From IMG/VR virus record IMGVR_UViG_3300045988_154803: a stretch of DNA of 48,828 nucleotides; one strand, 5' to 3'. The DNA comes from a virus. Taxonomy: Duplodnaviria > Heunggongvirae > Uroviricota > Caudoviricetes. A program made the translations under genes and the position numbers. Shown here in pieces: positions 1,125 through 48,828 of this stretch (position 1 is its first letter; each line of letters begins with the position of its first letter). Under the pieces are notes generated by a model. It searched no databases. It saw nothing but the letters and a program-made list of their open reading frames with translations, and was not told the origin of the DNA.

Positions 1125-1200
1125 TGGTTGATGCGTGCGCTCATGAGAAAAGCGCATAGAATGTTGTAACTATATATTTATATAATTATAGAAATATATA

Positions 1201-1410
1201 TTACTTGGGGCAGTTGATTTCCCATGCCCTGTTATGAGCCAGAATATCTTTCTTTGTCTGGCGGTCCATAACATCGATATCGTGATCAGTCAGGTAGATG
1301 GGCTTTACCCAATCACAGGCGGTATCAACCACCACCGGGACGCTTCCACGACTCCCGCAGCTCGCGATCAACATCGTCATCAGCCATATGGTTAACACTC
1401 TGCTGTACAT
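1201..1410 (-). CDS. o-spanin (Rz1-like outer-membrane lipoprotein); true start probably internal (MTMLIASCG)
   Basis: Lipobox LIASC followed by short Pro-rich periplasmic segment; overlaps 3' end of the i-spanin in another frame. Confidence 0.55.
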   Translation of the reverse strand: MYSRVLTIWLMTMLIASCGSRGSVPVVVDTACDWVKPIYLTDHDIDVMDRQTKKDILAHNRAWEINCPK

Positions 1411-5573: not shown

Positions 5574-5872
5574 GCCACAGCCCCTCTCAACGGCTTAACT
5601 TTGGCTAATAAGGTGTTAAACAACATGGAGTTAGGATTCATGCCAAATGGCAATTCCGGTTTAGCGGAGTAGTACAGGCAACCATTTATTTTCCTGGTTG
5701 TTATCTGTCCTTCGGCAACCATGCTTCTCAGTCTGCAACGCATAGAGTTCTGCGACACACCAATGTGCTCCGCGATTACGTCCACTTTTGAACATGGGTG
5801 ATCGGTCAGGAAATTAATCACATCTTGGGGGTTAATAATTTTGCGTTTCATTGTCGAGGCGTCCTTATACAT
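5570..5872 (-). CDS. Small winged-helix-like DNA-binding protein (candidate regulator)
   Basis: 100 aa; helix-turn-helix-like VIAEHIGVSQNSMRCRLRSMVAEG; preceded by AT palindrome promoter. Confidence 0.4.
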   Translation of the reverse strand: MYKDASTMKRKIINPQDVINFLTDHPCSKVDVIAEHIGVSQNSMRCRLRSMVAEGQITTRKINGCLYYSAKPELPFGMNPNSMLFNTLLAKVKPLRGAVA

Positions 5873-5897
5873 TTATATAAATATATAATTCTATATA

Positions 5898-6996: not shown

Positions 6997-7112
6997 CAGA
7001 TTTCTCCGGTTTAACCAGGGCGGGTATCGCTCGGTTTCGGGTATAACCTTAGGAAATTTTTTCCCACCTGTAAAGCGCTTTTTATATAAATCTATAATTA
7101 TATATTTATAGA
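6997..7112 (-). promoter_or_regulatory. Conserved promoter/5' leader cassette, copy A
   Basis: Near-identical to 16461-16580 and 48667-48785; ends at the start codon with GGAG RBS; contains TATAATTATA palindrome. Confidence 0.6.
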
Positions 7113-7165
7113 TTTTCGATGTTACCGATGTCTACACACCATCAAAACAGCTCAAAATGACACTT

Positions 7166-8513: not shown

Positions 8514-9025
8514 TGATGGCCCCCGTCATTTCTGGTGCTTTTCACCGTGCGGCTTCTTAAAAACCTGCCATCACGAACAACAGACACTTCTCGTTTACCC
8601 AACCTCATTTCACGGCGGTAACATTCAGAAAATGCCTCGTCCGGCATCATATAAATGCGACGCTTCGCCTCCGTATCCAGAAGGGAACGGCTTGGGGTTA
8701 CATATAAAAACGACTCATCAATAGGGACAAAACCACGAGCAAGAATTGCTGGCAGAATGCCAGGAAGAACGCAGAAAACAGCTCCACGATGCAGCAACAT
8801 CTGGTACTCCATGACCTCCGTTATCCCCGTGACTACTGTTACGGTGTCACGTCTGTTACGGCTGGCAACCAGTCGCTGCACACGTCCAATTTTCTGATCT
8901 ACAGATAGATGTTTGCTATCGTTATCAATATGATCGATAACAAACCCTTTAATCGTTTGATCAAGGTAGTGCACCACCTTCGATTGAATCTGGTGATTAT
9001 CACCAAAGAAGGCCAGAATCATCAT
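8510..9025 (-). CDS. Hypothetical early protein
   Basis: 171-aa ORF, operon position downstream of cro-like gene. Confidence 0.4.
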   Translation of the reverse strand: MMILAFFGDNHQIQSKVVHYLDQTIKGFVIDHIDNDSKHLSVDQKIGRVQRLVASRNRRDTVTVVTGITEVMEYQMLLHRGAVFCVLPGILPAILARGFVPIDESFLYVTPSRSLLDTEAKRRIYMMPDEAFSECYRREMRLGKREVSVVRDGRFLRSRTVKSTRNDGGHQ

Positions 9026-9516
9026 TCCTCAAGCCTCCCAAGTGCTGAACGCCGGGCGTTGCTAATCTCCTTATGAATCAGCTCGATATCGCTGGAATCT
9101 TTATTCTTAAACTCCAGCATGGCAATCGCATCACGAACCTCTGAAACGGTTACGTGTGAGTGTTTCCAGCGAGCAATGAATCGCGGACCGCGTAGATTGC
9201 AACGCTCCGCAGGCATCCCCAGCTCAGAGAAAACCGCTTTCAGCCTTGATAAGCAGTTAACAGGGAGATTCCCTTTGATCTTGTTCTGCCGAACCGATGT
9301 GCCATCGCTACGCTGGCGCTGACGTTCGGCAAAATCTGCCGCCCATTGCTGGACGTTAATCCGGCCTTCCGAATACGCCACCAGCAGCGTCAGGTTATCC
9401 GCACGAGGGAATCTCTCGAAGCGATACCAGGCACCAATCAGTGATGACGTAAAGCCAAACTTTCTGGCAACACCAATTTGGCCTCCATTCTCGTCAACCC
9501 ACTCCTGAAAGGTCAT
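9022..9516 (-). CDS. Cro/YdaS-like HTH regulator (N-terminal domain) with C-terminal extension
   Basis: GGQIGVARKFGFTSSLIGAWYRFERFP resembles YdaS/Cro-type HTH; divergent from CI across operator cluster. Confidence 0.5.
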   Translation of the reverse strand: MTFQEWVDENGGQIGVARKFGFTSSLIGAWYRFERFPRADNLTLLVAYSEGRINVQQWAADFAERQRQRSDGTSVRQNKIKGNLPVNCLSRLKAVFSELGMPAERCNLRGPRFIARWKHSHVTVSEVRDAIAMLEFKNKDSSDIELIHKEISNARRSALGRLEE

Positions 9517-9534
9517 TTAACGAACTCCAGTTAA

Positions 9535-9652
9535 ACCACGATATGTGGTATTAAAACCACATATTGTGAGTTTTTCAATGGGCGAAACAAAAAATAACCT
9601 TCTATTTGTGGTCCACCTCTCGTCTTACCATGTGAAAACCACTAAATGTGGT
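9535..9652. promoter_or_regulatory. Immunity operator/promoter region: three ACCAC-N5-GTGGT-type palindromes
   Basis: ACCACGATATGTGGT (9535-9549), ACCACATATTGTGAG (9556-9570), ACCACTAAATGTGGT (9638-9652). Confidence 0.6.
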
Positions 9653-9689
9653 AATGTATAAATAACCCACCATTCACGATTGATGAGAC

Positions 9690-10346
9690 ATGAAAAGCAA
9701 CGACGAGAACATCAAGAAAGAAATAGGTCTGCGCATTCAGACTCTACGGAAACAATCCGGCATGACTGCCGGAGATCTCCAGCAAGTCACTGGAATAGGC
9801 TTAAGCACCTTGCAGAACTATGAGGCCGGATTAAGACAACCATCTATACCTGCCATCAAGAAAATCGCGCACGCCCTGAAAGCATCAGCGCCTTATATCG
9901 CGTGCTTAACAGATAACCCGTTCCCACCCCAGAATACTAACGCTCCTGTTATTCCTGGGCTTGTAGCTATAAAAAATGACATAGCATCGCACGCCGGAGA
10001 AAAGCCAGTGCTGGCGATAGAACAGGAGATTCTACGAAGCAAGAACATCAACCCATCGTCTCTGTCAGTTCTCCAGAGCAACGATGAGTTAATGTCACCA
10101 ACAATATCCCCAGGCTCCCAAGTCCTGATTAATACAGACGATACAGAGATTCATGAGGGGATCTATGCCCTTGAAGACAGAAATGGCCCGGTTGTTTTGA
10201 GGCACTGTAGAGTCATACCGGGTGACAATGCTGTTATGCTGTCAACCGAAAGGGATGCTGAAATGAACACTAAGCATCTGAATAACGAGGAATTTAAGCG
10301 TTATAAAGTTCTGGGCCGCGTAGTTAGTGTTGTCAACTGGTTATGA
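9690..10346 (+). CDS. CI-like phage repressor (XRE HTH + S24/LexA-like C-terminal domain)
   Basis: N-terminal IGLRIQTLRKQSGMTAGDLQQVTGIGLSTLQNYEAG; C-terminal domain alignable to S24 fold. Confidence 0.8.
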   Translation: MKSNDENIKKEIGLRIQTLRKQSGMTAGDLQQVTGIGLSTLQNYEAGLRQPSIPAIKKIAHALKASAPYIACLTDNPFPPQNTNAPVIPGLVAIKNDIASHAGEKPVLAIEQEILRSKNINPSSLSVLQSNDELMSPTISPGSQVLINTDDTEIHEGIYALEDRNGPVVLRHCRVIPGDNAVMLSTERDAEMNTKHLNNEEFKRYKVLGRVVSVVNWL

Positions 10347-10438
10347 TACACAGCACGGCGAAAGCCGTGCATTTCTACGCTCAAAAAAACCACGCTTTGT
10401 GGTTTTGACAACATGTGAAAGTATAAAAGAGGCTACGC

Positions 10439-10813
10439 ATGGAATTACATACAGCCAATAAAAACGAAACTCTGATCACTGCTGGAATCGAAATCCAAGC
10501 GTTGAACATAGCGATTGAGTGTATGTTATGCCAAATCATTGATAATGAGAAAGATATCGACTGGATAGAATCTATCCTTCATCTGGCATCAGAACAAAAA
10601 GTCTGCCTCAAAACGGCCTTACAATACGATGTGCCAGCGGTATCGAAGCTGTGCCAGCCATTGATGGCATATAACAGGGCTATTATTTCTGTATGCCTCA
10701 TGATTCTCGATGAAACCCCCCCTCTTAGCGACCGCTCAGAAGCTGCTCTAACCCTCTCACGTAAACAGCGACAGCTAGCAAATCAACTGATATCAACGAT
10801 AGCTGACCTCTGA
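10439..10813 (+). CDS. Hypothetical protein downstream of cI
   Basis: 124-aa ORF; position analogous to exclusion genes in other phages (inference only). Confidence 0.4.
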   Translation: MELHTANKNETLITAGIEIQALNIAIECMLCQIIDNEKDIDWIESILHLASEQKVCLKTALQYDVPAVSKLCQPLMAYNRAIISVCLMILDETPPLSDRSEAALTLSRKQRQLANQLISTIADL

Positions 10814-10830
10814 CTGCAAGCGGGCTAACG
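10809..10830 (+). terminator. Putative terminator hairpin after cI operon
   Basis: aagcgggc-taac-gcccgctt stem-loop followed by AT-rich tract. Confidence 0.4.
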
Positions 10831-10842
10831 CCCGCTTATATG

Positions 10843-10948
10843 ATTATAGATTTATATAATTATATAAAACGCTTTTCATCAGCCAAAAAGTTGGTTATGC
10901 TTACCTCGTTCTATAAATATAGATTTATAGAATTATATAACCAAACAC
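10843..10948. promoter_or_regulatory. parA upstream region with AT palindromes (candidate centromere/operator)
   Basis: Perfect 16-bp palindrome TTATATAATTATATAA at 10843-10858 and a related repeat CTATAAATATAGATTTATAGAATTATATAA. Confidence 0.5.
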
Positions 10949-11617
10949 ATGGAGTCTCGACAAATGACTATCTCTGTAGGTATTTTCAACGGAAAAGGCG
11001 GCGTAACCAAATCAACAATTGCCCGTGCTTTAGCAGTTGCTTATGCAAAGGCTGGCTGGAATGTATGCCTGATCGATATGGATGTGCTTAACGGAACGGT
11101 AACGCGTTGGGTACAACGCAGAATGGCCAACAATATCGAACCAGCAATCGCGGCGCAGCCGTGCGGCACACCATCACAAGTCCAGAAAATCATCGAATCA
11201 GAAGTATACGACCTGGTTATCGTTGATGGCGGTGCCTACGCATCTGAATCAGTACCGAAGCTCTCTGAATTTCTGGATATGGTTATTTTGCCAACCAGAT
11301 TCTCTACCGATGACCTGGAAACCACCGTTAACACAGCTCACGGCATCGTTAAAAAGGGTGTACCAATCAAGAAAATTTGCATGGTGTTTTCCGGCGCGGC
11401 TGAAAACGAAGCTGACTATATTGAAGCCCAAGAGTACCTGGCTAATACGCCATACTTTGTTGTCGATAAGTACATTCCCCACAAGCCAGCTCTGAGCAAA
11501 GCTCAGGATAAGGGCTTAAGCCTCATTGAGTGCTCATACGTTGCGCCACGCAAAAAGGCAGACGACGTTATTCAGGGGATTATCAACCAGCTTGAGGCTC
11601 TGACTACTGCCGCGTAA
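10949..11617 (+). CDS. parA: ParA-family partition ATPase (small, type Ib-like); likely start at 10964
   Basis: Deviant Walker A GKGGVTKST; ~217 aa without N-terminal HTH. Confidence 0.85.
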   Translation: MESRQMTISVGIFNGKGGVTKSTIARALAVAYAKAGWNVCLIDMDVLNGTVTRWVQRRMANNIEPAIAAQPCGTPSQVQKIIESEVYDLVIVDGGAYASESVPKLSEFLDMVILPTRFSTDDLETTVNTAHGIVKKGVPIKKICMVFSGAAENEADYIEAQEYLANTPYFVVDKYIPHKPALSKAQDKGLSLIECSYVAPRKKADDVIQGIINQLEALTTAA

Positions 11618-11629
11618 TATATAATTATA
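11618..11629. repeat. TATATAATTATA palindrome between parA and downstream RHH gene
   Basis: Perfect 12-bp palindrome. Confidence 0.6.
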
Positions 11630-11660
11630 GTTTTATAGATTTATATAAGAGGGGATACAC

Positions 11661-11909
11661 ATGGCCGCACCATCAAAACCACCAAAGAAGAACAGCAAAG
11701 GCGTACCGCCATCGATCGAACAACCGCAGGTTTTCGACCCGACTGAAACGCCAACCAGAACCAAATCAGGTGGGGCACAAATGGCGTTTAACGTCGACCC
11801 TGAATTTAAACGCGAGTACAAAACGTTCGCCAGCTCAATGGATATGTCATTGAAAGAAGTGCTGACAAAATCTTTTGAGTTACTCAAGGCTCAATACAAC
11901 CAGAAGTAA
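11661..11909 (+). CDS. Small ribbon-helix-helix-like protein, ParG-like centromere-binding partner
   Basis: 82 aa; basic disordered N-terminus then AFNVDPEFKREYKTFASSMDMSLKEVL pattern. Confidence 0.55.
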   Translation: MAAPSKPPKKNSKGVPPSIEQPQVFDPTETPTRTKSGGAQMAFNVDPEFKREYKTFASSMDMSLKEVLTKSFELLKAQYNQK

Positions 11910-11938
11910 GAGAAGGTGACGGCCTCCAGCGCCAACTG

Positions 11939-12121
11939 TTGGCCGTCGCGACACAACAAGGGGAATTTGTTATGTCCGAGCAACAATATACACGGTTACT
12001 AAAAACTCGTCTAATAGACCTCAAACGGCTGCAAGCTGGCCGCTTATTTGCCCTGCTATCCACCAGGCCAGAATGGGTACGTGAAGCAGTTCTGAAAGGC
12101 TTAATGCGCTCCAGCGTTTAA
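11939..12121 (+). CDS. Small hypothetical protein
   Basis: 60-aa ORF following partition genes. Confidence 0.3.
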   Translation: MAVATQQGEFVMSEQQYTRLLKTRLIDLKRLQAGRLFALLSTRPEWVREAVLKGLMRSSV

Positions 12122-12129
12122 ATTCAACC

Positions 12130-12153
12130 ATAAAAAAGCCCCCGAAGGGGCCT
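12130..12153. terminator. Hairpin terminator (U-run on minus strand, A-run on plus)
   Basis: gcccccgaaggggc stem-loop flanked by A6 on plus strand. Confidence 0.5.
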
Positions 12154-12725
12154 AATCGCTACTTGCTGCTAATGTTTATCGTCACATTCAGAGCGTTATC
12201 AGTAATCTTCCAACCCTCCCCATGTGGCGTAAACAAAGCTCCAGTAACAACGATAAAAATACACATACAGTATTTTTTCATTGTATGGCCCTTACAGGCC
12301 GTTTCACGGCATCCCCACCGACGAAAACAACGCGAGAGCAAGCACGGCTGCTTGTGCTTGCATGTACGGCAACGGAGAATCCTCCCCTAAAGTCGGTGCC
12401 CGGGTGCGAATCGGCGGGAAGGTCCACAGGTATTTTACGATTATTTTAAGATTAGTAATAGGAAAGAAATTAAACGAAAAAACTCGTTTATTTTCACAAA
12501 ATCAGTAACCTACCCACAATCTGTGAGTTTGCAGGCACAACAAGAACCACAATTTTTTGAAGCATAATAGTGGACTATTATTACCTTTTGGGTAAAATTA
12601 ACTTGCTGCTTGTGCTTGCGTGGTTGTTTATACAACAACGTAATGCTGAAAGGACCGCGAATCCGATCAGCACGAAAGAACCGTCCTCAATAGGGCGGTT
12701 TTTTTGTTTCTGCCTACCAATAAAC

Positions 12726-12738
12726 CCACGCTATGTGG
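12726..12738. promoter_or_regulatory. Fourth CCAC-N5-GTGG operator-like palindrome
   Basis: CCACGCTATGTGG abutting candidate -35 TTGTCT. Confidence 0.5.
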
Positions 12739-12773
12739 TTGTCTCTGTTAAAATCCCGCCGTATTGACATGAA

Positions 12774-12873
12774 TGCGCCATTGGTGGACACTTTCCGAGC
12801 CGTAGCAAAATCTACGGCCGGGATTGGAACCCCGATAATCATCATGGCGCATACCGCGTTAGCGGTTTTTTTA
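12774..12873 (+). ncRNA. Candidate small RNA (~100 nt) ending at intrinsic terminator
   Basis: Candidate promoter TTGTCT-N17-TATTGA; internal hairpin ccgtagcaaaatctacgg; terminator ccgc-gtta-gcgg + T7 at 12854-12872. Confidence 0.3.
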
Positions 12874-13037
12874 TGCGTAAAGCACTGCTACACCCAAATT
12901 ATGGTGGGGCGTGCGGGGGAGTCGTAAGACTCGCCGGATTCCATGGTGACCGGTAGTTCCAACCCTGTACGTCTCACCACCCAATGATTGGAACCAGACG
13001 GTGGTGAGTATCCTTAACCTTTAAGGGAACTATCACC

Positions 13038-13229
13038 ATGACAAACTTACCCCATGACTATTACGTCAACCTCGTAAAGATCCTTCTCAAGAAAGCCTCA
13101 TACGCCGATAAACTCCGCCTGGCTGAAATCATCGAGCGCGAAGCTATGCGCATCGCCAGCAACGATAACGCTGTTTCTGACGCAAAAATCTCCCTCGTAA
13201 CCAAAGTAGTTATGGGAGGTACAAAATGA
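13038..13229 (+). CDS. Small protein upstream of antirepressor
   Basis: 63-aa ORF with stop/start overlap (ATGA) to antirepressor. Confidence 0.4.
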   Translation: MTNLPHDYYVNLVKILLKKASYADKLRLAEIIEREAMRIASNDNAVSDAKISLVTKVVMGGTK

Positions 13230-14368
13230 AAACGCTTCCGACCGTTAACACCCTACAGCCTATCCTGCATAACCAGATCCCCGTTATCACTAGTGAACTT
13301 CTGGCGCAGTTATACGGAACAAAAATCAAAAACATTTCTGATAACTTTCTGAACAACACGACGCGATTCATAGCCGGAAAGCATTACTTTAAAATTGAAA
13401 AAAACGAATTACGCGAGTTCAAGAACAGACCTGAAACAATCGGGTTAGTTGGTAAAAATGCCCGCTCCCTAATTCTCTGGACCGAACACGGAGCAGCCCG
13501 TCACGCCAAAATGCTCGAAACCGATCAGGCTTGGGATGTGTTCGAAAAACTGGAAGACTGCTATTTCAACCAGAACGCACAAACGGCCGCGACCGTAACC
13601 GTCTCACCAAACAATGCTCGTGAGGTTGTCGATACGCTCAACGCCAAACCGATGTTTTACATTAAAGTGTGCAACAACGAGCCACTCACAACCTCAGCCG
13701 ATGTTGCCCAGGCATTCAGCACCACAAACAATTCCATCGTTATGGCCATCGATGCGTTACGCATTCCTCGCACAGCTGCGGCGCGTCATTTCTTTAAAGA
13801 GCAACGACCGTTGGAAGGAAGCGACCGCGAAATAACAATCTATCGCATGACAAAAGACGGATTTACCTTGCTCATGGAAAGTATCGACGGTCCAGGCGTG
13901 AAGGATATCAAGCTGGCCTACATTGAAGCCTTTAACGCTATCAGCAGCGTGTTAAAAACACAGTACGAGCGCGATCTGGCTAAACGACTGTACCAGGAAA
14001 AAACGATTATCCGCGCGGCAACAGAGCATAATCGGCTATTAACGGAACCGAACTACAGGAAGGAACTAATCAAGGAGTTTGACAAGGCAACAGGGAAAAC
14101 CAAAGCGGCGCTAAGTCTGCCAGCAATGACTCAGGAAAATGTGATATCAGCCTTACTTCTTGATCTGCTCAGAAACGCCAGAGCACTTATCAGCTTTGAC
14201 GAAAACCTGAATCCTCAGCTCAAGCTACTACCACCGACAGGCAAAGTAGTCGACCAGGCTGATCACAACAGCATACTCAGCGTACTGGATGCAAACCTGC
14301 CAGCCAGGACACTACAGGATCTGATAAAAACATGTGCTGATAAGCTGGCACAGAAAAGCAGACCATAA
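13226..14368 (+). CDS. ant: Antirepressor-like protein (ORF6N/KilA-N-type N-terminal domain + Rha-like domain)
   Basis: N-terminal IPVITSELLAQLYGTKIKNISDNFLNNTTRFIAGKHYF; central PLTTSADVAQAFSTTNNSIVMAIDAL. Confidence 0.7.
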   Translation: MKTLPTVNTLQPILHNQIPVITSELLAQLYGTKIKNISDNFLNNTTRFIAGKHYFKIEKNELREFKNRPETIGLVGKNARSLILWTEHGAARHAKMLETDQAWDVFEKLEDCYFNQNAQTAATVTVSPNNAREVVDTLNAKPMFYIKVCNNEPLTTSADVAQAFSTTNNSIVMAIDALRIPRTAAARHFFKEQRPLEGSDREITIYRMTKDGFTLLMESIDGPGVKDIKLAYIEAFNAISSVLKTQYERDLAKRLYQEKTIIRAATEHNRLLTEPNYRKELIKEFDKATGKTKAALSLPAMTQENVISALLLDLLRNARALISFDENLNPQLKLLPPTGKVVDQADHNSILSVLDANLPARTLQDLIKTCADKLAQKSRP

Positions 14369-16460: not shown

Positions 16461-16580
16461 CGGGTTATCTCCGGTTTAACCAGGGCGGGTATCGCTCGGT
16501 TTCGGGTATAACCTTAGGAATTTTTTTCCCACCTGTAAAGCACTTTTTATATAAATATATAATTATATAATTCTATGAGC
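16461..16580 (-). promoter_or_regulatory. Conserved promoter/5' leader cassette, copy B
   Basis: Near-identical to copies A and C; palindrome TATATAATTATATA at 16556-16569. Confidence 0.6.
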
Positions 16581-18732: not shown

Positions 18733-19713
18733 TTAATGTTGGAGTGATTTCCAGGTCTTTCTTAGCCTGTTATAACGCTGCTCAACGAGGGATCGTAAAT
18801 ATGCAAGGTCAGCACCTGGATACATGCCATCAGCAAATTCCTGGCTAACCTCTCTAGTGATTTGATGACGAAGTTCGGCCTCTCCCTTTTCCTGAACAAG
18901 ACGCGCAGCTCTCTCCGCTGCTTTCTGTTTTGCCTTTATCTCTCTGGCCGTCTTCCTCTGACGCCATACATTCTCCATCTGCTCCTGAATAACAATACGC
19001 TTATAATCAGCCTCCGTTATCGCTTTTTTAAGCCGTTCGCTATTCTTCGCATTGAAGTAATTAAGTTTCTGGCTAACCGCACGTCTCCATGCTTGTTCAG
19101 TAATACCAACGATTTCCAGCAGTTGATCACGAATCTCTATTTTCGCTGGCCAATACTGTTTATTCACCCGATCCCAGCGACGTTCATAATCAATAAAACC
19201 TAACGCTTTCAGTTGCGACAACGCCCTTGTACAGCGCGTTATAGACTTGTTCCCAGCTTCGGATACGGTAGACAGGCCGCAAAAATCAGCCAACGCCTCA
19301 GCACTGGCCAGAACCCGCTTAGAAATGATGTTTACATGGTGCAAAATCGCAGCAATCACAGCATTAATCGCCCGACGACGATGCTCGTTTATCCGGCGTT
19401 TCCGCTCTGACGGTTGATTAACGTAGAACGCAACCTCACACGTAAGATCACGACCATTAATGCGCTGTAAAGCATCAGATAACACCAGCGGCAGCTTGTG
19501 CGTATGGTGCTTTGGAGGCTGGAACTCCGGCGACAAATTACAAACGTAAGCTGAACGTAGAGACGGCATTGGTCTATCCATATGTTCGCTCTTGCGTCCA
19601 CGGAAAACCAACGTATAATGGGAGTTGTCGAGGCGCCCATGGATTGTTTTTGTTGGTTTTCCGTGGATGTCGCAAGAAGCCCGCAGATTTATCTGCGGGC
19701 TTTTTGTTTCCAT
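18733..19713 (-). CDS. repA: IncFII-type RepA replication initiator (RepA1-like); true start possibly internal
   Basis: RRRAINAVI...GLSTVSEAGNKSITRCTRALSQLKALGFIDY aligns by eye to R1/R100 RepA1 block RRRAIDALL...GLATESAAGKLSITRATRALTFLSELGLITY (recalled). Confidence 0.8.
   Translation of the reverse strand: METKSPQINLRASCDIHGKPTKTIHGRLDNSHYTLVFRGRKSEHMDRPMPSLRSAYVCNLSPEFQPPKHHTHKLPLVLSDALQRINGRDLTCEVAFYVNQPSERKRRINEHRRRAINAVIAAILHHVNIISKRVLASAEALADFCGLSTVSEAGNKSITRCTRALSQLKALGFIDYERRWDRVNKQYWPAKIEIRDQLLEIVGITEQAWRRAVSQKLNYFNAKNSERLKKAITEADYKRIVIQEQMENVWRQRKTAREIKAKQKAAERAARLVQEKGEAELRHQITREVSQEFADGMYPGADLAYLRSLVEQRYNRLRKTWKSLQH
19679..19710 (+). terminator. Plus-strand intrinsic terminator antisense to repA 5' region (candidate CopA-like RNA 3' end)
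   Basis: gcccgcag-atttat-ctgcgggc followed by TTTTTGTTT. Confidence 0.4.
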
Positions 19714-19894: not shown

Positions 19895-20449
19895 TCAATG
19901 ATTCCCAGCCGGAAACCTGCGGTAAAGCGTGGATAAGGTAACATCGAAGATAATCGCTATCCGCTTACGTGAAACACCATTCGCAATAAGCCTTCCGATC
20001 TGTTCCCATTGCTCTGGTGCCAATTTTGAGCGGCGTCCTCCTATCCTGCCGTTAGCCCTTGCCACCGCCAATCCTGCACGCGTTCTTTCAATCATATTTT
20101 CCCGCTCCATCTCTGCGACTGCACTCAGCATCGTGTAGGCAAAGCGGCCAATTGAAGTGCTAATTTTTATCCCTTCCGTAATCGAAATAAACTCAATGTT
20201 GTTTGATAAAAAATGGTTAAGTAAATCAACAAGATGAATCAGAGAACGCCCCATTCGGTCCAGCTTCCAGACAATAACCGTATCGCCCGGCCGTAACACC
20301 TTAAGTAGCTTATCAAGTCCTGGTCGTTTTGATTTAGCACCGGATATTTTATCTTCAAAAATCTGGTCACATCCTGAACTCCTGAGCGCCTCCAGTTGTA
20401 ATTCCAAATTCTGGTCAAAAGTTGACACCCTCGCATAACCATATTGCAT
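19895..20449 (-). CDS. Gin/Hin/Cin/Pin-family serine DNA invertase
   Basis: 184 aa; YARVSTFDQ catalytic Ser motif, WKLDRMGRS, C-terminal HTH; alignable along full length to Mu Gin as recalled. Confidence 0.95.
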   Translation of the reverse strand: MQYGYARVSTFDQNLELQLEALRSSGCDQIFEDKISGAKSKRPGLDKLLKVLRPGDTVIVWKLDRMGRSLIHLVDLLNHFLSNNIEFISITEGIKISTSIGRFAYTMLSAVAEMERENMIERTRAGLAVARANGRIGGRRSKLAPEQWEQIGRLIANGVSRKRIAIIFDVTLSTLYRRFPAGNH

Positions 20450-21403: not shown

Positions 21404-21931
21404 ATGCAGCATTTAAAGAACATTAAGTCAGGTAATCCAAAAACAAAAGAACAATATCAGCTAACAAAGAATTTTGATGTTATCTGGTTATGGTCCGAAG
21501 ACGGTAAAAACTGGTATGAGGAAGTAAATAACTTTCAGGACGACACCATAAAGATTGTATACGACGAAAATAATATTATTGCCGCCATCACCAAAGATGC
21601 CTCCACGCTTAACCCTGAAGGTTTTAGCGTTGTCGAGGTTCCTGATATTACCGCCAACCGACGTGCTGATGACTCAGGTAAATGGATGTTTAAGGATGGT
21701 GCTGTGATTAAGCGGATTTATACGGCTGACGAACAGCAACAACAGGCCGAATCACAAAAGGCCGCGTTGATTTCCGAAGCTGAATCAGTCATCCAGCCGC
21801 TGGAACGCGCTGTCAGGCTGAATATGGCAACAGACGAGGAACGCACACGACTGGAAGCATGGGAACGCTACAGCGTTCTGGTCAGCCGTGTGGATACGGC
21901 AAATCCTGAATGGCCACAAAAGCCTGAATAA
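21404..21931 (+). CDS. Tail fibre assembly chaperone (alternative orientation)
   Basis: Paralog of 21960-22493 product ([22 protein letters not shown] vs [22 protein letters not shown]). Confidence 0.75.
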
Positions 21932-21959
21932 AAATTAAGGCCCGATAGCGGGCCTTGTT

Positions 21960-22493
21960 TCATTCTGGTTGTTCTGGAAACGTTACTGGCAGGCTGGAGG
22001 TGTCTGTGGATTCGACCTTCTGCGCATAGAGCATCCACTCGGTTAATTTTTGTTTATTCTCGTTGGAAATGATACCCAGCCGTAGCTGTGAGTCCCATAG
22101 CTGGGTTTTATCCCTGACGAGCTGTAGCAGGCTTTGCTTTTCATTTTCCGCTTGTTGCCTCTGCTCTTCCTCGGTATAAGTTCGCTTTATCACTACGCCA
22201 TCTTTGAACAACCATTTCCCCGAAATATCAGCCCGGCGATTTGCTGTAATATCAGGTAATTCAACGACGCTTGCGCCTTCCGGATTAATTGCTGAAACAT
22301 CCTTTTCAATACAAATAATAACGCCGTTATGGTCATAGACCATTTTCAAAGTGTCTGGCTGGAAATTCTTTTGTTCCTCATACCAGTTTTTTCCATCATC
22401 TGAATAAAGCCATTTGATGTTAAATTGCTTTGTTAGCTGGTATTGCTCTTTTGTTTTAGGGTTGCCAGCAGTAATGTTTTTTAAGTGCATCAT
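21960..22493 (-). CDS. Tail fibre assembly chaperone (currently expressed orientation)
   Basis: Immediately downstream of tail fibre gene; Tfa-like sequence. Confidence 0.8.
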   Translation of the reverse strand: MMHLKNITAGNPKTKEQYQLTKQFNIKWLYSDDGKNWYEEQKNFQPDTLKMVYDHNGVIICIEKDVSAINPEGASVVELPDITANRRADISGKWLFKDGVVIKRTYTEEEQRQQAENEKQSLLQLVRDKTQLWDSQLRLGIISNENKQKLTEWMLYAQKVESTDTSSLPVTFPEQPE

Positions 22494-22495
22494 CG

Positions 22496-24814
22496 TTAAA
22501 TACTCCCCGCGTTATACCACGTCCCATTAATGCAATACTGAATTGGCCTTGCCTGTGTTGTATCAATTAATTCATCACGGTTTCCGTTAACTGAACCCGT
22601 AACGACATAACCTGACCTGTCAGACCAGCCGGGGCCATTCCATGTCTGAACAGATGACAGACCGCCAAGGCGAATACCTGTAATAAACCTTGAGTTACAT
22701 TCTGCCTGCGTATATGCACCAACATCTCCCGCAGAGGGTTTGCGGGTTGTGGTGTAAAACTCTGACCAGTCAGCTTCAAAGCCATAACCATCACGCGCTG
22801 AACGATAAAAGATTCCGCCATTTCTGTAATTCACGCGGAACTGTGCAGCAGGGCAGCTCCCCGTATTCATATTGAAGTGGAGGATTAATGTCGATGCGCC
22901 ACCAATATTTGCGTTATAGACCCCGCTATTCCAGTTCCAGCCAACAGCTTTATCATTTCCGACAGTGCTTCCTGTTTGCCCTAAAGCAAATGCAGGTTGT
23001 TGATTTTTCGTGTTGTAGTCTCGTCGCCAGCCAGGAGCGTAAGCATCACCATGATTAATATAAGTGAATTGAGCGTTAGTAATTCCTCCACCGCTGGACG
23101 TGCTCGGCGTGGTAACGCGTATGGTCATTGCGCCGCGAGTGCCAATAACTTCCACCACAGCACCTGCAAGACAAATATTTCCGCAACCTGTATCTGTAAT
23201 GACCTTATTATTTGCATAAGCCCATGAGCCTTTGCACATCCAGTAAGGATGGTTAAATGCTCCCTGACTCTCCAGCCACGAAATAAATTGCGCGGTTGTC
23301 CAGACCTGACTATCGCCACCAATATCCAGCCATGCGCTATATGCGCGGCAGGCCCCAATATTTTTGGTGAAGGTATCTTTTCCCGGAATATCTGCGCCGT
23401 TCTGGTTTTTCTGTAATGCGCCAGAAGCCTGATTTACCGTTTCCTGTAAACCGAGGTATTCGATAACGGCAGCAACGGTCGATTTCGCAAGAATATCCCG
23501 CCCGACTTTTGTCAGGGTTGCCAGGCTGGCGACATCATTCCCCGTAAAATACGGAAACTTGTCTGCCGCAGTAGCAAGCCCGGCCAGCGCCGTCAGGGTG
23601 GCATCTTTCGGTTGCTTACCCGCAAGCGCGTTAGTCATGGTGGTCGCAAAATTCGGGTCGTTTCCCAGCGCCGCCGCTAACTCGTTCAGCGTATTCAGTG
23701 CGTCAGGTGACGAGTCCACGAGGGCAGCGATCGCAGCCATAACGAAAGCCGTGCTTGCGATTTGGGTATTATTCGTTCCCTGTCGCGCAGTTGGCGTTGT
23801 TGGCGTTCCGGTCAACGCAGGACTGTTTAAGGGCGCTTTCTTGTTCGTTTCATCCATTACCGCCTTGACCGCTTTCGATGTCGCGGCCAGTGTTTCAGAC
23901 GTGCTGTTGGTGGAACTACTGAGCTGAGTTATTCCCCTTACAGTCAGTGAAGCTACAGGCACATTTGTTATCTGCTCCCACGAATGCGTGTGATTGGACG
24001 GAGCCTTTCCGGCCGCAAGATCATACGCTGCCTTAACAGCCTTTGGTGTTGCTGCTAGCGTTTCAGACGTGCTGTTGGTGGCACTACTGAGCTGAACAAT
24101 CCCTTTTCGCGCTGTGGTAGCGTCCTGTGCGGTGTATTTGCCATTAGCCAGGTCATATGCTGCCTTAACAGCCTTAGGCGTCGCAGCAAGCGTTTCAGAC
24201 GAGCTATTGGTGGCGCTGCTAAGTTGAACAAAGCCTTTTGAGGTTAAAGTTGCATCAGGATGATTACGTGATTGTTCATGTTTCACAATGGCTTGCTTAA
24301 GCCGCTTTGCTGAAACAGCAAGGGAATCATCTGTACCGTCATCAATTTCTTGTTCATTGGCAAATCTTGCAACCCCAACAACAGTTTCGGTTGCGGGAGG
24401 ATTAATAAACTCAATATCACCAAATGTAATATTTTTAGTATCAAGAGTCTTGATTGCTATGTCACTTGATATTAAAGCAATAGTAGATGATGCTTTATTT
24501 ATTATTGCTTGTTCTTGCGAGTATACAGCAAACAACGTTCCCTTATTTGTATACAATCCTATTGTATGGACAACATACTCATCTTTACTATCATCCTTCG
24601 CCGTTACATGAATTGTATCAGGGGAAACAACTTTGCCACCTATTGTGGTAAGTCGTTTTATTTCGTTTGTTATATTTGTTTGTGAAGTTGACGTGACATA
24701 ATATCTACTACCTAAACCAACAGAAACAATCTCAACTTTATTTGTTCCTGTTTTGTTGGCATTAACCAGCTCCTGACGCCCGGCGTCAGTCATCGTAAAT
24801 AATAATTTACTCAC
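22496..24814 (-). CDS. Tail fibre protein (constant N-terminal ~450 aa outside, variable C-terminus inside invertible segment)
   Basis: 772 aa; repeated SSATNS(T/S)SETLAATPKAVKAAYD collar-like motifs; crossover site lies inside the ORF. Confidence 0.85.
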   Translation of the reverse strand: MSKLLFTMTDAGRQELVNANKTGTNKVEIVSVGLGSRYYVTSTSQTNITNEIKRLTTIGGKVVSPDTIHVTAKDDSKDEYVVHTIGLYTNKGTLFAVYSQEQAIINKASSTIALISSDIAIKTLDTKNITFGDIEFINPPATETVVGVARFANEQEIDDGTDDSLAVSAKRLKQAIVKHEQSRNHPDATLTSKGFVQLSSATNSSSETLAATPKAVKAAYDLANGKYTAQDATTARKGIVQLSSATNSTSETLAATPKAVKAAYDLAAGKAPSNHTHSWEQITNVPVASLTVRGITQLSSSTNSTSETLAATSKAVKAVMDETNKKAPLNSPALTGTPTTPTARQGTNNTQIASTAFVMAAIAALVDSSPDALNTLNELAAALGNDPNFATTMTNALAGKQPKDATLTALAGLATAADKFPYFTGNDVASLATLTKVGRDILAKSTVAAVIEYLGLQETVNQASGALQKNQNGADIPGKDTFTKNIGACRAYSAWLDIGGDSQVWTTAQFISWLESQGAFNHPYWMCKGSWAYANNKVITDTGCGNICLAGAVVEVIGTRGAMTIRVTTPSTSSGGGITNAQFTYINHGDAYAPGWRRDYNTKNQQPAFALGQTGSTVGNDKAVGWNWNSGVYNANIGGASTLILHFNMNTGSCPAAQFRVNYRNGGIFYRSARDGYGFEADWSEFYTTTRKPSAGDVGAYTQAECNSRFITGIRLGGLSSVQTWNGPGWSDRSGYVVTGSVNGNRDELIDTTQARPIQYCINGTWYNAGSI
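23441..23466. repeat. Right inversion crossover site (gix/hix-like)
   Basis: TTCCTGTAAACCGAGGTATTCGATAA, close to Mu gixL as recalled. Confidence 0.85.
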
Positions 24815-44527: not shown

Positions 44528-45907
44528 CTACTTAATCAACGGCCGGAAAGCCGCCAGCACATCATCAGATCGTCCGATTGTTGAACCACCAGGCAACGGC
44601 AACTCAAACTCAAAACGAACAGCTTTCTCCAGACTCGCCCAACTAAGGGAATCATCGTTAATGACGTGCAAATACCAGCTCTTACAGTTGAATATTGACC
44701 GCTTAATCCTGAAACCATGTACACGACACAACTGCTTCACTTCATCATCAGAGTGAAACTTCTGGTAAAACCAGTGCCCCTTCCGGTACAACGCGGTAAA
44801 ACCGTTATGATCAATAAAATAAAGCCGGCTTTTGGAACTCGCCGCTTGTGTTTGCTTCAGGACTGTTTCCAGCTCTCCACGGCTACGACCAGAAAAGAAT
44901 ATTGACCCACCAGCTTTACACAGGCCTTTTAGAACCGTCAGAACGGACCATTCAGCCTCGACACTATCGACCGAGTTCAAAACGCTATCGCAAATCACGT
45001 AGTCGTAACGCCCTCGCGTTTTTAAGTCGTCCACCAGCGTATCAATCATCCGGTTTGTTGCGGCCCTATCCAGAGTGTTTCCAGCGCCCTTACGGCGGAA
45101 AAGCTCGAGATCATGCAGGTTATATCCCTTTGCCCTGAGCATTCGCGCGTAGTCTCCCTGCCCCGAACCAAAATCAATTCCTCTTGGCGTCTTGGCAATG
45201 ATCGGGAGGATCAACGACTCATACAGATTTGATTTCAGGCTGCCACCATTACGCAACCGCATAAGCTGCGCATACGTCTGGATGTATGTTGTTTTCTCCA
45301 GATGAGAATACTCAAATACACCATAAGTTTTATTCAGATAACTTTGGTATTTTTCCTTCTCAACATCAGGGATCACAAACACCGTTAGCGGTGTGCGCGT
45401 CATTTTCGCTGCTAATGCATACTGAGCACAGTGAATAACCTCACCAGACTGAGTAGCAACACAACCACCCCACGGACCATACTTGATAACCAGTTCCGCT
45501 ATGTTCTTTCGAACATATGCCATTTTCGCGCGCATATTGCCTGAGATCTGGCTTGCCGATACCTGAACAAAACCATGCTTATCTTCCAGACCGGACACCC
45601 TGCAACGCTCATCTCCGCTATCAAAATCCGTTCCGTTATGCAGTTGGTTAAACCGTACTTCGTCGTATACCGTCGTTTCACAGGGCAACACATACACCGC
45701 AGCACGCGTTATTCCCAACTTACGTAGCGCCTTCGTCCTTTGGTGTCCCGCCACCAGCAAATCGCCGCGCACTATCAATGGCTTCACAAGCCCCAGCTCC
45801 CTGACGCTTTCCGCCAGCCTCGCAAGATCATCCTCACCGATAAAACGCGGGTTATATTCCGCGCCGCGTAGGTGCGTTATGTCGTAATTGAGGTGAAGCA
45901 TCAGCAC
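44528..45907 (-). CDS. ParB N-domain fused to class I SAM-dependent methyltransferase
   Basis: N-terminal ...LVKPLIVRGDLLVAGHQRTKA (ParB-like); C-terminal GIDFGSGQGDYARML ... DYVICDSVL (Rossmann motif I/post-I); no DPPY/W motif. Confidence 0.65.
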   Translation of the reverse strand: MLMLHLNYDITHLRGAEYNPRFIGEDDLARLAESVRELGLVKPLIVRGDLLVAGHQRTKALRKLGITRAAVYVLPCETTVYDEVRFNQLHNGTDFDSGDERCRVSGLEDKHGFVQVSASQISGNMRAKMAYVRKNIAELVIKYGPWGGCVATQSGEVIHCAQYALAAKMTRTPLTVFVIPDVEKEKYQSYLNKTYGVFEYSHLEKTTYIQTYAQLMRLRNGGSLKSNLYESLILPIIAKTPRGIDFGSGQGDYARMLRAKGYNLHDLELFRRKGAGNTLDRAATNRMIDTLVDDLKTRGRYDYVICDSVLNSVDSVEAEWSVLTVLKGLCKAGGSIFFSGRSRGELETVLKQTQAASSKSRLYFIDHNGFTALYRKGHWFYQKFHSDDEVKQLCRVHGFRIKRSIFNCKSWYLHVINDDSLSWASLEKAVRFEFELPLPGGSTIGRSDDVLAAFRPLIK

Positions 45908-46524
45908 ACCTCCCCAGCCAGCAATGCGGATACAAATCCGATATAGCTGCCATTATCATCAACATAACGAGACACCGCGCAGTCAAAACGATCCGCTTCC
46001 TCATCCGTTGCCGGGATTTTATGACCTCCAAATGACAGGTACTGAACTTTTACGCCTGATTTGGCCTCATCCTTCTCAAATGGGATATCCATACCCTCTG
46101 TGTCATCGTAGACCGCCGCACTCAATAAGTTATCCAGTTCGCGCTGAGTAAAACCAATTGAGTCCAGAGCAAAATCATCGGCCGCAAGATCTGCAAGCTC
46201 CGCGCTTAACAGCTCTTCATCCCAACCAGCATTCAGCGGAATACGGTTGTCGGCCAGACGATATGCCTTCTTCTGATTCTCCGTTAGCCCTTCCAGAACA
46301 ATGCAGGGAACATCATCCATCCCCAACTGAGTGGCCGCAGCAATTCGACCATGACCAGCAATTACAACGTTGTTCTCGTCTATCAGGATCGGATTAGTCC
46401 ATCCGTACTCCTGTATGCTGGCAACAATCTGATCTACCTGCTCCACGGAGTGTGTGCGAGCGTTCTTTTCATAACCAATCAACACAGAAAGTGGTAAAGA
46501 AACCACATTAAGATGTTTTGTCAT
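45901..46524 (-). CDS. ParB-like nuclease domain protein (paralog 2)
   Basis: ...TNPILIDENNVVIAGHGRIAAA...; overlaps start of fusion gene (coupled). Confidence 0.8.
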   Translation of the reverse strand: MTKHLNVVSLPLSVLIGYEKNARTHSVEQVDQIVASIQEYGWTNPILIDENNVVIAGHGRIAAATQLGMDDVPCIVLEGLTENQKKAYRLADNRIPLNAGWDEELLSAELADLAADDFALDSIGFTQRELDNLLSAAVYDDTEGMDIPFEKDEAKSGVKVQYLSFGGHKIPATDEEADRFDCAVSRYVDDNGSYIGFVSALLAGEVC

Positions 46525-48666: not shown

Positions 48667-48785
48667 CGGGTTATCTCCGGTTTAACCAGGGCGGGTATCG
48701 CTCGGTTCCGGGTATAACCTTAGGAAATTTTTTCCCACCTGTAAAGTACTTTTTATATAAATATATAATTATATAATTCTATGAC
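48667..48785 (-). promoter_or_regulatory. Conserved promoter/5' leader cassette, copy C
   Basis: Near-identical to copies A and B; palindrome TATATAATTATATA at 48762-48775. Confidence 0.6.
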
Positions 48786-48828
48786 ACTTGCCAGAGAGCA
48801 TCATGCAATTGGATACCTCCATTGCACT
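48771..48828. repeat. Terminal overlap identical to 52-109
   Basis: Direct comparison. Confidence 0.9.

Follow-up and report, generated by a model that had tools for sequence, protein, structure and literature searches.

Four-unit arrays of an 8-bp A/T repeat at the par locus and five other transcription units of an enterobacterial phage-plasmid: candidate sites of a ribbon-helix-helix partition protein

A phage-plasmid has to coordinate its upkeep as a plasmid with the control of its phage genes, and the mechanism is known for few models (P1, N15). Here we analyze a stretch of viral DNA of 48,828 nucleotides (IMG/VR record IMGVR_UViG_3300045988_154803; the window hereafter). It carries a small parA gene, an adjacent gene for an 82-aa ribbon-helix-helix (RHH) protein, and eight arrays of short A/T repeats that are most likely binding sites of that protein. 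Repeats of similar layout are familiar from MetJ, a chromosomal metabolic RHH repressor without a partition role, which needs the co-repressor S-adenosylmethionine and occupies tandem 8-bp palindromic metboxes (AGACGTCT) in runs of two to five, with one dimer per unit and cooperative contacts between neighbours. Among partition proteins, omega of the inc18 plasmid pSM19035 binds heptad arrays that overlap the copS, delta and omega promoters and double as parS, and activation of the ParA ATPase requires four or more repeats in a row (PMC9499535). ParG places one dimer on each box of an 8-bp period, and its arrays are both operator and centromere (PMC3130281). The phage-plasmid N15 has four dispersed inverted-repeat centromere sites (PMC7205306).

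The module in the window resembles omega/delta/parS in several respects. In both, the gene for a small RHH protein, whose N-terminal tail is flexible, lies beside that for a Walker-type ParA, and short contiguous repeats in direct and inverted orientation stand at several promoters, with one dimer probably bound per repeat here. Arrays that are at once operators of a global regulator and multiple centromeres are known for omega and are proposed here, and the omega threshold of four repeats has its counterpart in the exactly four units of each array. The sites themselves differ, since omega recognizes the asymmetric 7-bp sequence WATCACW at 7-10 copies per site, whereas the window has fixed quartets of a palindrome-like 8-bp unit, TTATATAA. 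Omega also belongs to a Firmicute theta plasmid and regulates copy control and a toxin-antitoxin system, whereas the element here is an enterobacterial phage-plasmid whose putative regulon comprises promoter-leader cassettes, a MarR-like operon and a tRNA/methylase unit. ParF/ParG/parH-OF of TP228 is similar in its ATPase, in an RHH partner whose ~80 aa include a disordered tail, and in its arrays 5' of the ATPase gene. A ParG site, however, is a 4-bp box (ACTC) followed by a 4-bp AT-rich spacer, giving the 8-bp period, while here the whole 8-bp unit is A/T; and the 20 ParG boxes form a single contiguous block 5' of parFG, unlike the dispersed arrays of the window. N15 is likewise a phage-plasmid, and the sites of its partition protein are dispersed over the genome and not clustered at the par operon. 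It differs in being of type Ia, with a large helix-turn-helix (HTH) protein, SopB, and single palindromes of the 16-bp class, where the window has a type-Ib system with an 82-aa RHH protein and quartets, and in being linear with a protelomerase, where the element here is circular and of IncFII type. In 2008, Ravin, Rech and Lane reportedly found that the N15 Sop system also influences late gene expression. To MetJ the likeness is one of geometry, the tandem 8-bp palindromic unit.

Each of the eight arrays (S1 to S8, Table 1) consists of four tandem, in-phase 8-bp units. The consensus is itself palindromic, the variants include TTATAGAT, TTATAGAA and TTCTATAA, and because the last two occur, units are present in both orientations. 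When a weight matrix trained solely on the 12 par-locus units (three arrays) is run over the genome, it recovers eight arrays of 32 bp and no more, at 38-43 bits; the next best site scores 7.5 bits, and the best score in 200 locally shuffled genomes is 19.4 bits. These shuffles keep local composition in 50-bp blocks, and a dinucleotide-preserving control covers the 10-mer core only. Per-unit scores in all arrays are +5.7 to +12.2 bits, while the octamers on both sides score -3 to -22. Elsewhere in the genome no 2-unit or 4-unit site exceeds chance, and isolated single units are as frequent as chance predicts. Each of the eight arrays is intergenic, with a gene directly 3' of it; they occupy seven intergenic regions and in several cases come straight after a terminator hairpin. 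By the same matrix scan there is no array within 2 kb of repA and none at the HigBA genes, and the virion-gene half of the genome has none despite its higher AT content (GC 0.37-0.43).

Table 1. Arrays, promoters, cassettes and genes discussed in the text (window coordinates; array scores from the matrix trained on par-locus units).
Feature	Position	Strand	Description	Score (bits)
S1	1170-1201		units CTATATAT TTATATAA TTATAGAA ATATATAT	38.3
S2	5865-5896		four units	38.0
S3	7082-7113		four units; 7 bp 5' of cassette 1 -35	42.0
S4	10836-10867		four units, including a 16-bp palindrome at 10852-10867	43.0
S5	10909-10940		four units	42.6
S6	11617-11648		four units; fills the 43-bp parA-RHH spacer	38.5
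S7	16547-16578		four units; after terminator, 7 bp 5' of cassette 2 -35	42.7
S8	48753-48784		four units; 7 bp 5' of cassette 3 -35	42.7
parA	10964-11617	+	217-aa small Walker-type ATPase; Walker A KGGVTKST at residues ~11-18; no N-terminal DNA-binding domain	
82-aa RHH gene	11661-11909	+	43 bp 3' of parA	
Putative parA promoter	10873-10901	+	-35 TTTTCA 10873-10878; 17-bp spacer; -10 TATGCT 10896-10901	
Cassette 1	6997-7081	-	-35 TTTACA 7069-7074; -10 TAAGGT 7046-7051; leader hairpin; Shine-Dalgarno GGAGA 7003-7007	
Cassette 2	16461-16546	-	-35 16534-16539; -10 16511-16516; Shine-Dalgarno 16468-16472	
Cassette 3	48667-48752	-	-35 48740-48745; -10 48717-48722; Shine-Dalgarno 48674-48678	
cI	9690-10346		gene for CI-type repressor	
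124-aa protein	10439-10813		no known domain; just upstream of parA	
IncFII-type RepA	18733-19713		NCBIfam RepA_IncFII_LM, 8.1e-69	

A first-pass annotation had described these sites as dispersed AT-only palindromes. The sites are real. As it stated, they stand 5' of parA, in the spacer that separates parA from the small gene, in each of the three cassettes, and in the gap from the lysis genes to tRNA-Met. The palindromes, however, are pieces of a more regular pattern, the arrays of four 8-bp units. The 10-mer TATAATTATA occurs exactly at 1181, 7093, 10855, 11620, 16558 and 48764. These six occurrences compare with 0.08 expected, and none of 100 dinucleotide-preserving shuffles reached six. The listed palindromes at 16556-16569 and 48762-48775 are exact, and the degenerate copies reported near 5880 and 10930 also exist. 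Two others were misplaced. The supposed 16-bp palindrome at 10843-10858 reads ATTATAGATTTATATA and is not palindromic, the true 16-mer palindrome, TTATATAATTATATAA, being at 10852-10867; and the one at 11618-11629 is imperfect, the perfect 10-mer being 11620-11629. The further proposal, that these are dispersed operator or centromere sites bound by the small RHH protein, gains support from comparative evidence of four kinds: the fold of the protein, the bracketing of the parA promoter, co-variation of unit and protein, and repeats in other elements.

ParA matches Pfam CbiA (1.5e-12), also MipZ/ParA, and the PHROG ParA-like family (8.9e-39), and it matches NCBIfam ParA_partition over its full length at 4.3e-22, below the curated cut-off. 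The closest solved partition ATPase is ParF of TP228, and the Protein Data Bank (PDB) matches include ParF (4dzz) and TP228 ParA (5u1g). The neighbouring 82-aa protein has a disordered tail (residues 1-39) with a conserved motif, K-x3-KG-x-PP, followed by an extended strand (40-45, QMAFNV) and helices at 47-59 and 64-80. An AlphaFold2 (AF2) model based on an 84-sequence alignment gives strand-helix-helix over residues 41-80 with a predicted local distance difference test (pLDDT) of 91-97, the N-terminal ~40 residues having low confidence. Foldseek matches to the 82-aa model are nearly all RHH repressors and antitoxins (CdbA, StnY, AmrZ, CopG, Arc, ParD, AtaR), with target-normalised template-modelling scores of 0.65-0.86 and root-mean-square deviations of 1.1-2.5 Å. 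On these models, the C-terminal domain of the protein is an RHH fold. A small ParA and an adjacent RHH protein together make up a module that is therefore organised like a type-Ib partition system.

Homologues of the 82-aa protein are short and divergent in sequence. A word-based search returned only relatives with at least 79% identity, and a representative-genome scan for the locus returned one locus only, in Pantoea; an exhaustive HMMER search yielded 102 homologues of ~75-85 aa, of which 84 were aligned. Among these 84, the Pfam matches are RHH_10 (37), Antitox_RHH (21), 56B_RHH (8) and ParG (5, best 2.7e-4). The two best PDB matches of the family profile are the RHH proteins SvtR and ParG (1p94, E 0.13), and hhalign aligns residues 39-75 with the RHH domain of ParG, in register. 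A profile of seven relatives compared with the PDB gave noise only, and the 82-aa protein has no match to Pfam ParG (PF09274) even at E≤10. Omega (Pfam Omega_Repress, PDB 1irq) did not match the family in the PDB or Pfam searches, and its hhalign comparison with the family is marginal (E 0.0038, probability 8.7%), in register with the RHH domain. By the tests run, the sequences place this system outside the ParG family and probably outside the omega family as well. Across the family the putative strand reads x-[LM]-x-F-x-V; its core-facing residues are conserved and its three DNA-facing positions vary.

The sequence of the repeat unit varies among relatives together with the strand of the RHH protein. 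The window combines strand QMAFNV with par units TTATATAA and TTATAGAT. A Salmonella relative (L004), whose RHH protein is 89% identical, has QMSFNV and the same two units. The Serratia (L002, L003, L018) and Pantoea (L007) relatives, which are 40-50% identical, have the strands AMNFNV, PMNFNM and LMNFNV and the units TTAAATAA, TTAAAGAT and ATCTTTAA. In a conjugative plasmid (L023) the strand is PMNFKV and the par units are TTAACGAA; in a different phage-plasmid (L024), LLTFNI and ATACATAA or ATATGTAT; and in a phage-like contig (L020), QMSFRV and AAATAGCT. L025, a 1.3-kb contig that covers the parA-RHH spacer only, has QMKFAV and WWTGTACW. This pairing suggests a simple candidate specificity code, in which strand residues Q/A/N go with TTATATAA and x/N/N with TTAAATAA. 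Matrices built from the par-locus units of L002, L003 and L018 each recover four to five further arrays in their own genomes, well above shuffles, and the dispersed and par-locus arrays therefore change together. In each examined genome of the E. coli/Salmonella/Serratia phage-plasmid lineage there are arrays at par, one at each of three cassettes, and another that adjoins a conserved ribosome-binding region. In L020, L023 and L024, by contrast with this lineage, a matrix scan finds arrays confined to the par locus and no dispersed ones; dispersal is thus a derived trait of the phage-plasmid lineage.

L020, L023, L024 and L025 have only parA and the RHH gene in common with the window. Repeats of 8-bp period (at least two units) nevertheless flank the parA promoter in the first three and occupy the parA-RHH spacer of L025. 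Type-Ib ParA proteins have no sequence-specific DNA-binding domain. Since the repeats track parA and the RHH gene alone, the RHH protein is the likely binder. A different protein of the element (CI, the 124-aa protein, the MarR-like protein or an RstR-like HTH protein) might instead occupy the arrays, with the RHH protein acting elsewhere or nowhere. All of these proteins diverge along with the arrays in the E. coli, Salmonella and Serratia phage-plasmids, and the 124-aa protein always adjoins the par locus in this lineage, which keeps such a binder in contention within it. The repeats in elements that share only parA and the RHH gene argue against CI, the 124-aa neighbour or any other lineage-specific binder: in L020, L023 and L024 they flank parA with no homologues of the CI-124-aa module beside par. 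The specificity classes, moreover, differ at exactly the DNA-facing positions of the RHH strand. CI, the other candidate binder of the first-pass annotation, was rejected, since it has distinct candidate operators of the form ACCAC-N5-GTGGT, and we consider another binder altogether improbable.

The positions of the arrays relative to transcription signals also bear on their role. S4 comes after a terminator and ends 5 bp before the putative parA -35 element. S5 begins at about the predicted parA transcription start and stops 11 bp 5' of the Shine-Dalgarno sequence. The putative promoter is therefore flanked by arrays, and the layout array/-35/N17/-10/array is also present in L002, L003, L004, L018 and L024. 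Such bracketing, as in known autoregulated type-Ib systems, supports the RHH protein as the binder. The first base of S6 is the last base of the parA stop codon, and the array ends 12 bp before the ATG of the RHH gene. S1 is placed between the lysis genes and the leftward-transcribed tRNA-Met and MT-A70 methyltransferase genes. S2 stands on the minus strand in the order terminator, array, then GGACGCCTCGACA-ATG of a 93-aa MarR-like gene (5851->5570; PHROG). The other three arrays head promoter-leader cassettes, which are 87-98% identical over 122 nt. From 5' to 3' they consist of the array, 7 bp, the -35 hexamer TTTACA, 17 bp that include an inverted repeat, the -10 hexamer TAAGGT, ~45 nt of leader, GGAGA and ATG, and the array spans about -43 to -74. 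Cassette 1 precedes a DUF3560/primase-like gene (6996->5929), cassette 2 a gene for a 126-aa product (16460->16080), and cassette 3 a gene for an 89-aa product (48666->48397) at the head of a leftward gene run toward a ParB/Srx-methylase pair and the virion genes.

This placement is also what would be seen if the arrays were plain promoter DNA, that is, UP elements and -10-like hexamers of strong constitutive promoters with no dedicated binder. Eight arrays are intergenic just 5' of genes, several after terminators, those of the cassettes are at the position of an UP element, and the units contain TATAAT. Plain promoter DNA does not account for units that keep strictly to an 8-bp phase, number four in every array and end sharply, or for the array 3' of the parA promoter and the one in the parA-RHH spacer. 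Nor would it predict a switch from TTATATAA to TTAAATAA in company with a changed RHH strand, RNA polymerase being essentially equal among the hosts. As a sole explanation it is slightly less credible still than a different binder. UP-like DNA and occlusion by the RHH protein are compatible, however, and the protein may occlude UP-like arrays.

Sites of host nucleoid-associated proteins (H-NS, IHF, Fis), or intrinsically curved DNA serving silencing or architecture, would account for sequences that are purely A/T, rich in TpA steps and located at promoters, and H-NS prefers AT-rich, TpA-rich DNA. Host proteins of this kind are highly conserved across the Enterobacterales, yet the unit differs between E. 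coli/Salmonella and Serratia/Pantoea and again in L024. The more AT-rich virion half is the very part that has no array, and quartets of 8-bp palindromic units fit the geometry of RHH operators (ParG) and not that of known nucleoid-protein sites; this explanation appears very unlikely. Replication iterons or origin elements of the plasmid replicon are the least credible of all, for although short iterated repeats on a plasmid and the typical AT-richness of origins would suit them, the replicon has an IncFII-type RepA (such replicons are controlled by antisense RNA, not iterons) with no array near repA, the arrays track the parA-RHH module in otherwise unrelated par neighbourhoods, and no IncFII-type RepA was called in the examined stretches of L020 and L023.

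Taken as sites of the RHH protein, the arrays can be fitted to a single scheme. It is fairly probable, in our judgement, that they are sites of an RHH-type ParB at the par locus and at five other transcription units, with operator, regulatory and partition roles. Each 8-bp unit would bind one dimer of the 82-aa protein, and four dimers would coat each array cooperatively, as the precedents of ParG and omega suggest. At the par locus, S4 and S5 around the parA promoter and S6 in the spacer would serve as the autoregulatory operator and, with ParA, form the partition complex, or centromere. By analogy with ParG and omega, the two arrays that flank the core promoter would mediate negative autoregulation, and the N-terminal tail of the RHH protein, with its K-x3-KG-x-PP motif, would contact ParA and thereby turn a coated array into a centromere. 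By the same analogy a centromere role for the arrays is probable, and the plasmid would carry several potential centromeres. If the dispersed quartets do act in this way, their precedents are the multiple parS sites of omega and the four inverted-repeat sites of N15.

Outside the par locus, quartets would have been recruited to five more units, namely the three cassettes, the MarR-like operon and the tRNA-Met/methylase unit. In the cassettes they may have been copied with the portable promoter-leader segment before unrelated genes, including the head of the run toward the virion genes. For the cassettes repression is the preferred reading: the bound protein would keep sigma region 4 and the alpha C-terminal domains of the polymerase off the promoter, and plasmid-state genes would be expressed in a dosage-compensated way. 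The partition protein would then be a global, dosage-sensing regulator of those genes. A stronger version is tentative, and we hold it to be somewhat less than an even chance: that the RHH partition protein was co-opted as a master regulator of the plasmid state, in which occupancy of the partition complex, and with it plasmid copy number, sets the expression of the regulon and perhaps gates lytic read-through, on a multi-centromeric replicon.

Several observations weigh against the RHH protein as binder or against parts of the scheme. The 82-aa protein itself has no significant direct sequence match in Pfam, NCBIfam or the PDB, and a first AF2 model, from 10 near-identical sequences (pLDDT 65), gave no RHH match and no other meaningful Foldseek match. 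The Foldseek E-values of the later model are weak (0.5-5) because the domain has only ~40 residues. The co-variation is based on about six unit classes and few independent specificity classes. For L020 and L025 the unit register was chosen by eye, and the repeats of L020 are within the shuffle range (16.5, against a shuffle maximum of 17.3). Between the E. coli-type and Serratia-type elements everything else diverges too, so that comparisons within this lineage alone would allow another co-evolving protein. Dispersal is not needed for partition in this family, since it is absent from L020, L023 and L024. A generic sigma-70 consensus scan picked none of the proposed promoters, which are weak matches to the consensus, and its 19 promoter-like sites do not exceed the 22.9 expected; the promoters were accepted because their -35 and -10 elements recur at equal distances in the Salmonella and Serratia relatives despite diverged surroundings. 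Finally, arrays 5' of a -35 element could activate rather than repress.

The underlying logic is already known and will be recognisable to specialists from omega and ParG. What seems new is the site grammar of a type-Ib RHH partition protein and the apparent recruitment of this protein as a global regulator in an enterobacterial phage-plasmid. Literature searches on the phage-plasmid family, on vB_YpM_39 and on phage-plasmid RHH centromeres returned nothing relevant, and a 2024 review that lists eight well-defined phage-plasmid groups does not include the family. Should the RHH protein control the five extra units, an enterobacterial phage would provide a compact case of global regulation by a partition protein, and the element would be a Gram-negative, phage-borne counterpart of omega whose grammar is exactly four 8-bp palindromic units. 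Four-unit arrays fit the four-repeat minimum for ParA activation, so far established for omega only, and the element would be a second, unrelated system in which that minimum may hold.

The cassettes have two further features. The arms of the inverted repeat in the promoter spacer co-vary, being TAGGAAA..TTTCCTA in Salmonella and TAGGAC..GTCCTA or TAGGTC..GACCTA in Serratia-type relatives, which suggests a second dimeric regulator acting on the cassette promoters. The leader RNA has a hairpin just 5' of the ribosome-binding region AAACCGGAGA (~7008-7040, 16473-16505 and 48679-48711, minus strand). Its outer stem co-varies in relatives (AACC/GGTT, GGCC/GGCC, GACC/GGTC), with compensatory changes at two pairs and no pair broken in 10 sequences. 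The leader matches no Rfam family, and the hairpin could be an element of mRNA stability or translational control. A different block, GGAG/GGAC-N-CTCGACAA-ATG, directly follows the array at parA (10952-10966) and at the MarR-like gene (5849-5864, minus strand). In Serratia relatives the same block comes after arrays before unrelated genes (L002 ~38092, L003 ~27713). Array plus ribosome-binding site thus make up a second portable module.

The element in the window is a circularly assembled phage genome of ~48.7 kb. Positions 1-51 are Illumina Nextera adapter sequence (AGATCTACAC...TCGTCGGCAGCGTCAGATGTGTATAAGAGACAG) and positions 52-109 are an exact copy of the final 58 bases, 48771-48828. The assembly is therefore circular with adapter contamination, and the actual genome length is ~48,719 bp. 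A second array copy at the left end of the window was rejected for the same reason, the segment being adapter followed by a duplicate of the right end. The region 9000-13000 is 96-97% identical to Yersinia phages vB_YpM_39, 41 and 44, and about 60 plasmids of E. coli, Salmonella and Klebsiella (44-52 kb), one of them (NZ_CP009073.1) from E. coli ATCC 25922, match the window. Among 5,426 complete E. coli genomes the par locus was found in 71 (~1.3%), and it is plasmid-borne at 71 of 72 places. The plasmid location of the locus and the matching plasmids together identify the element as a phage-plasmid, that is, a phage living as a plasmid.

The virion genes are of the myovirus type. Other genes include HigBA, a Hin invertase, and a P1-like c4 antisense RNA followed by an antirepressor gene. 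Three ACCAC-N5-GTGGT palindromes are located between cI and the divergent early operon (9537-9690); they are the likely operators of CI and bear no relation to the TTATATAA arrays. Rfam hits that pass the gathering threshold are ryfA, isrK and C4 antisense RNA (12132-12427 minus, 12799-12872 plus and 12897-12984 plus), directly 5' of an antirepressor gene of the ORF6N/Rha family (13226-14368, plus strand). The c4/antirepressor region is a P1/P7-type immI (c4-ant) immunity module in a 49-kb phage-plasmid.

Downstream of cassette 3, a protein with a ParB/Srx N-terminal domain (207 aa, 45904-46524) shares an operon (44531-46524, minus strand) with a 457-aa methyltransferase. It is far from parA and is not the ParA partner. 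A Hin-type invertase gene (19895-20449, minus strand) adjoins oppositely oriented tail-fibre and assembly genes (21404-23239 and 23847-24239), which are probably an invertible host-range segment, and the tail-fibre gene region has a 93-nt repeat in three copies. A Citrobacter koseri plasmid with a DUF3560 gene was rejected as a relative, being an unrelated conjugative plasmid. NZ_CP024829, at 32 kb, is apparently another relative of the element, though a shorter one; the analysis covered 6 kb of it. The Serratia marcescens relative L002 (CP083756.1) carries blaTEM-1 beside a recombinase gene at 22462-24062 and is a resistance-bearing member of the wider lineage.

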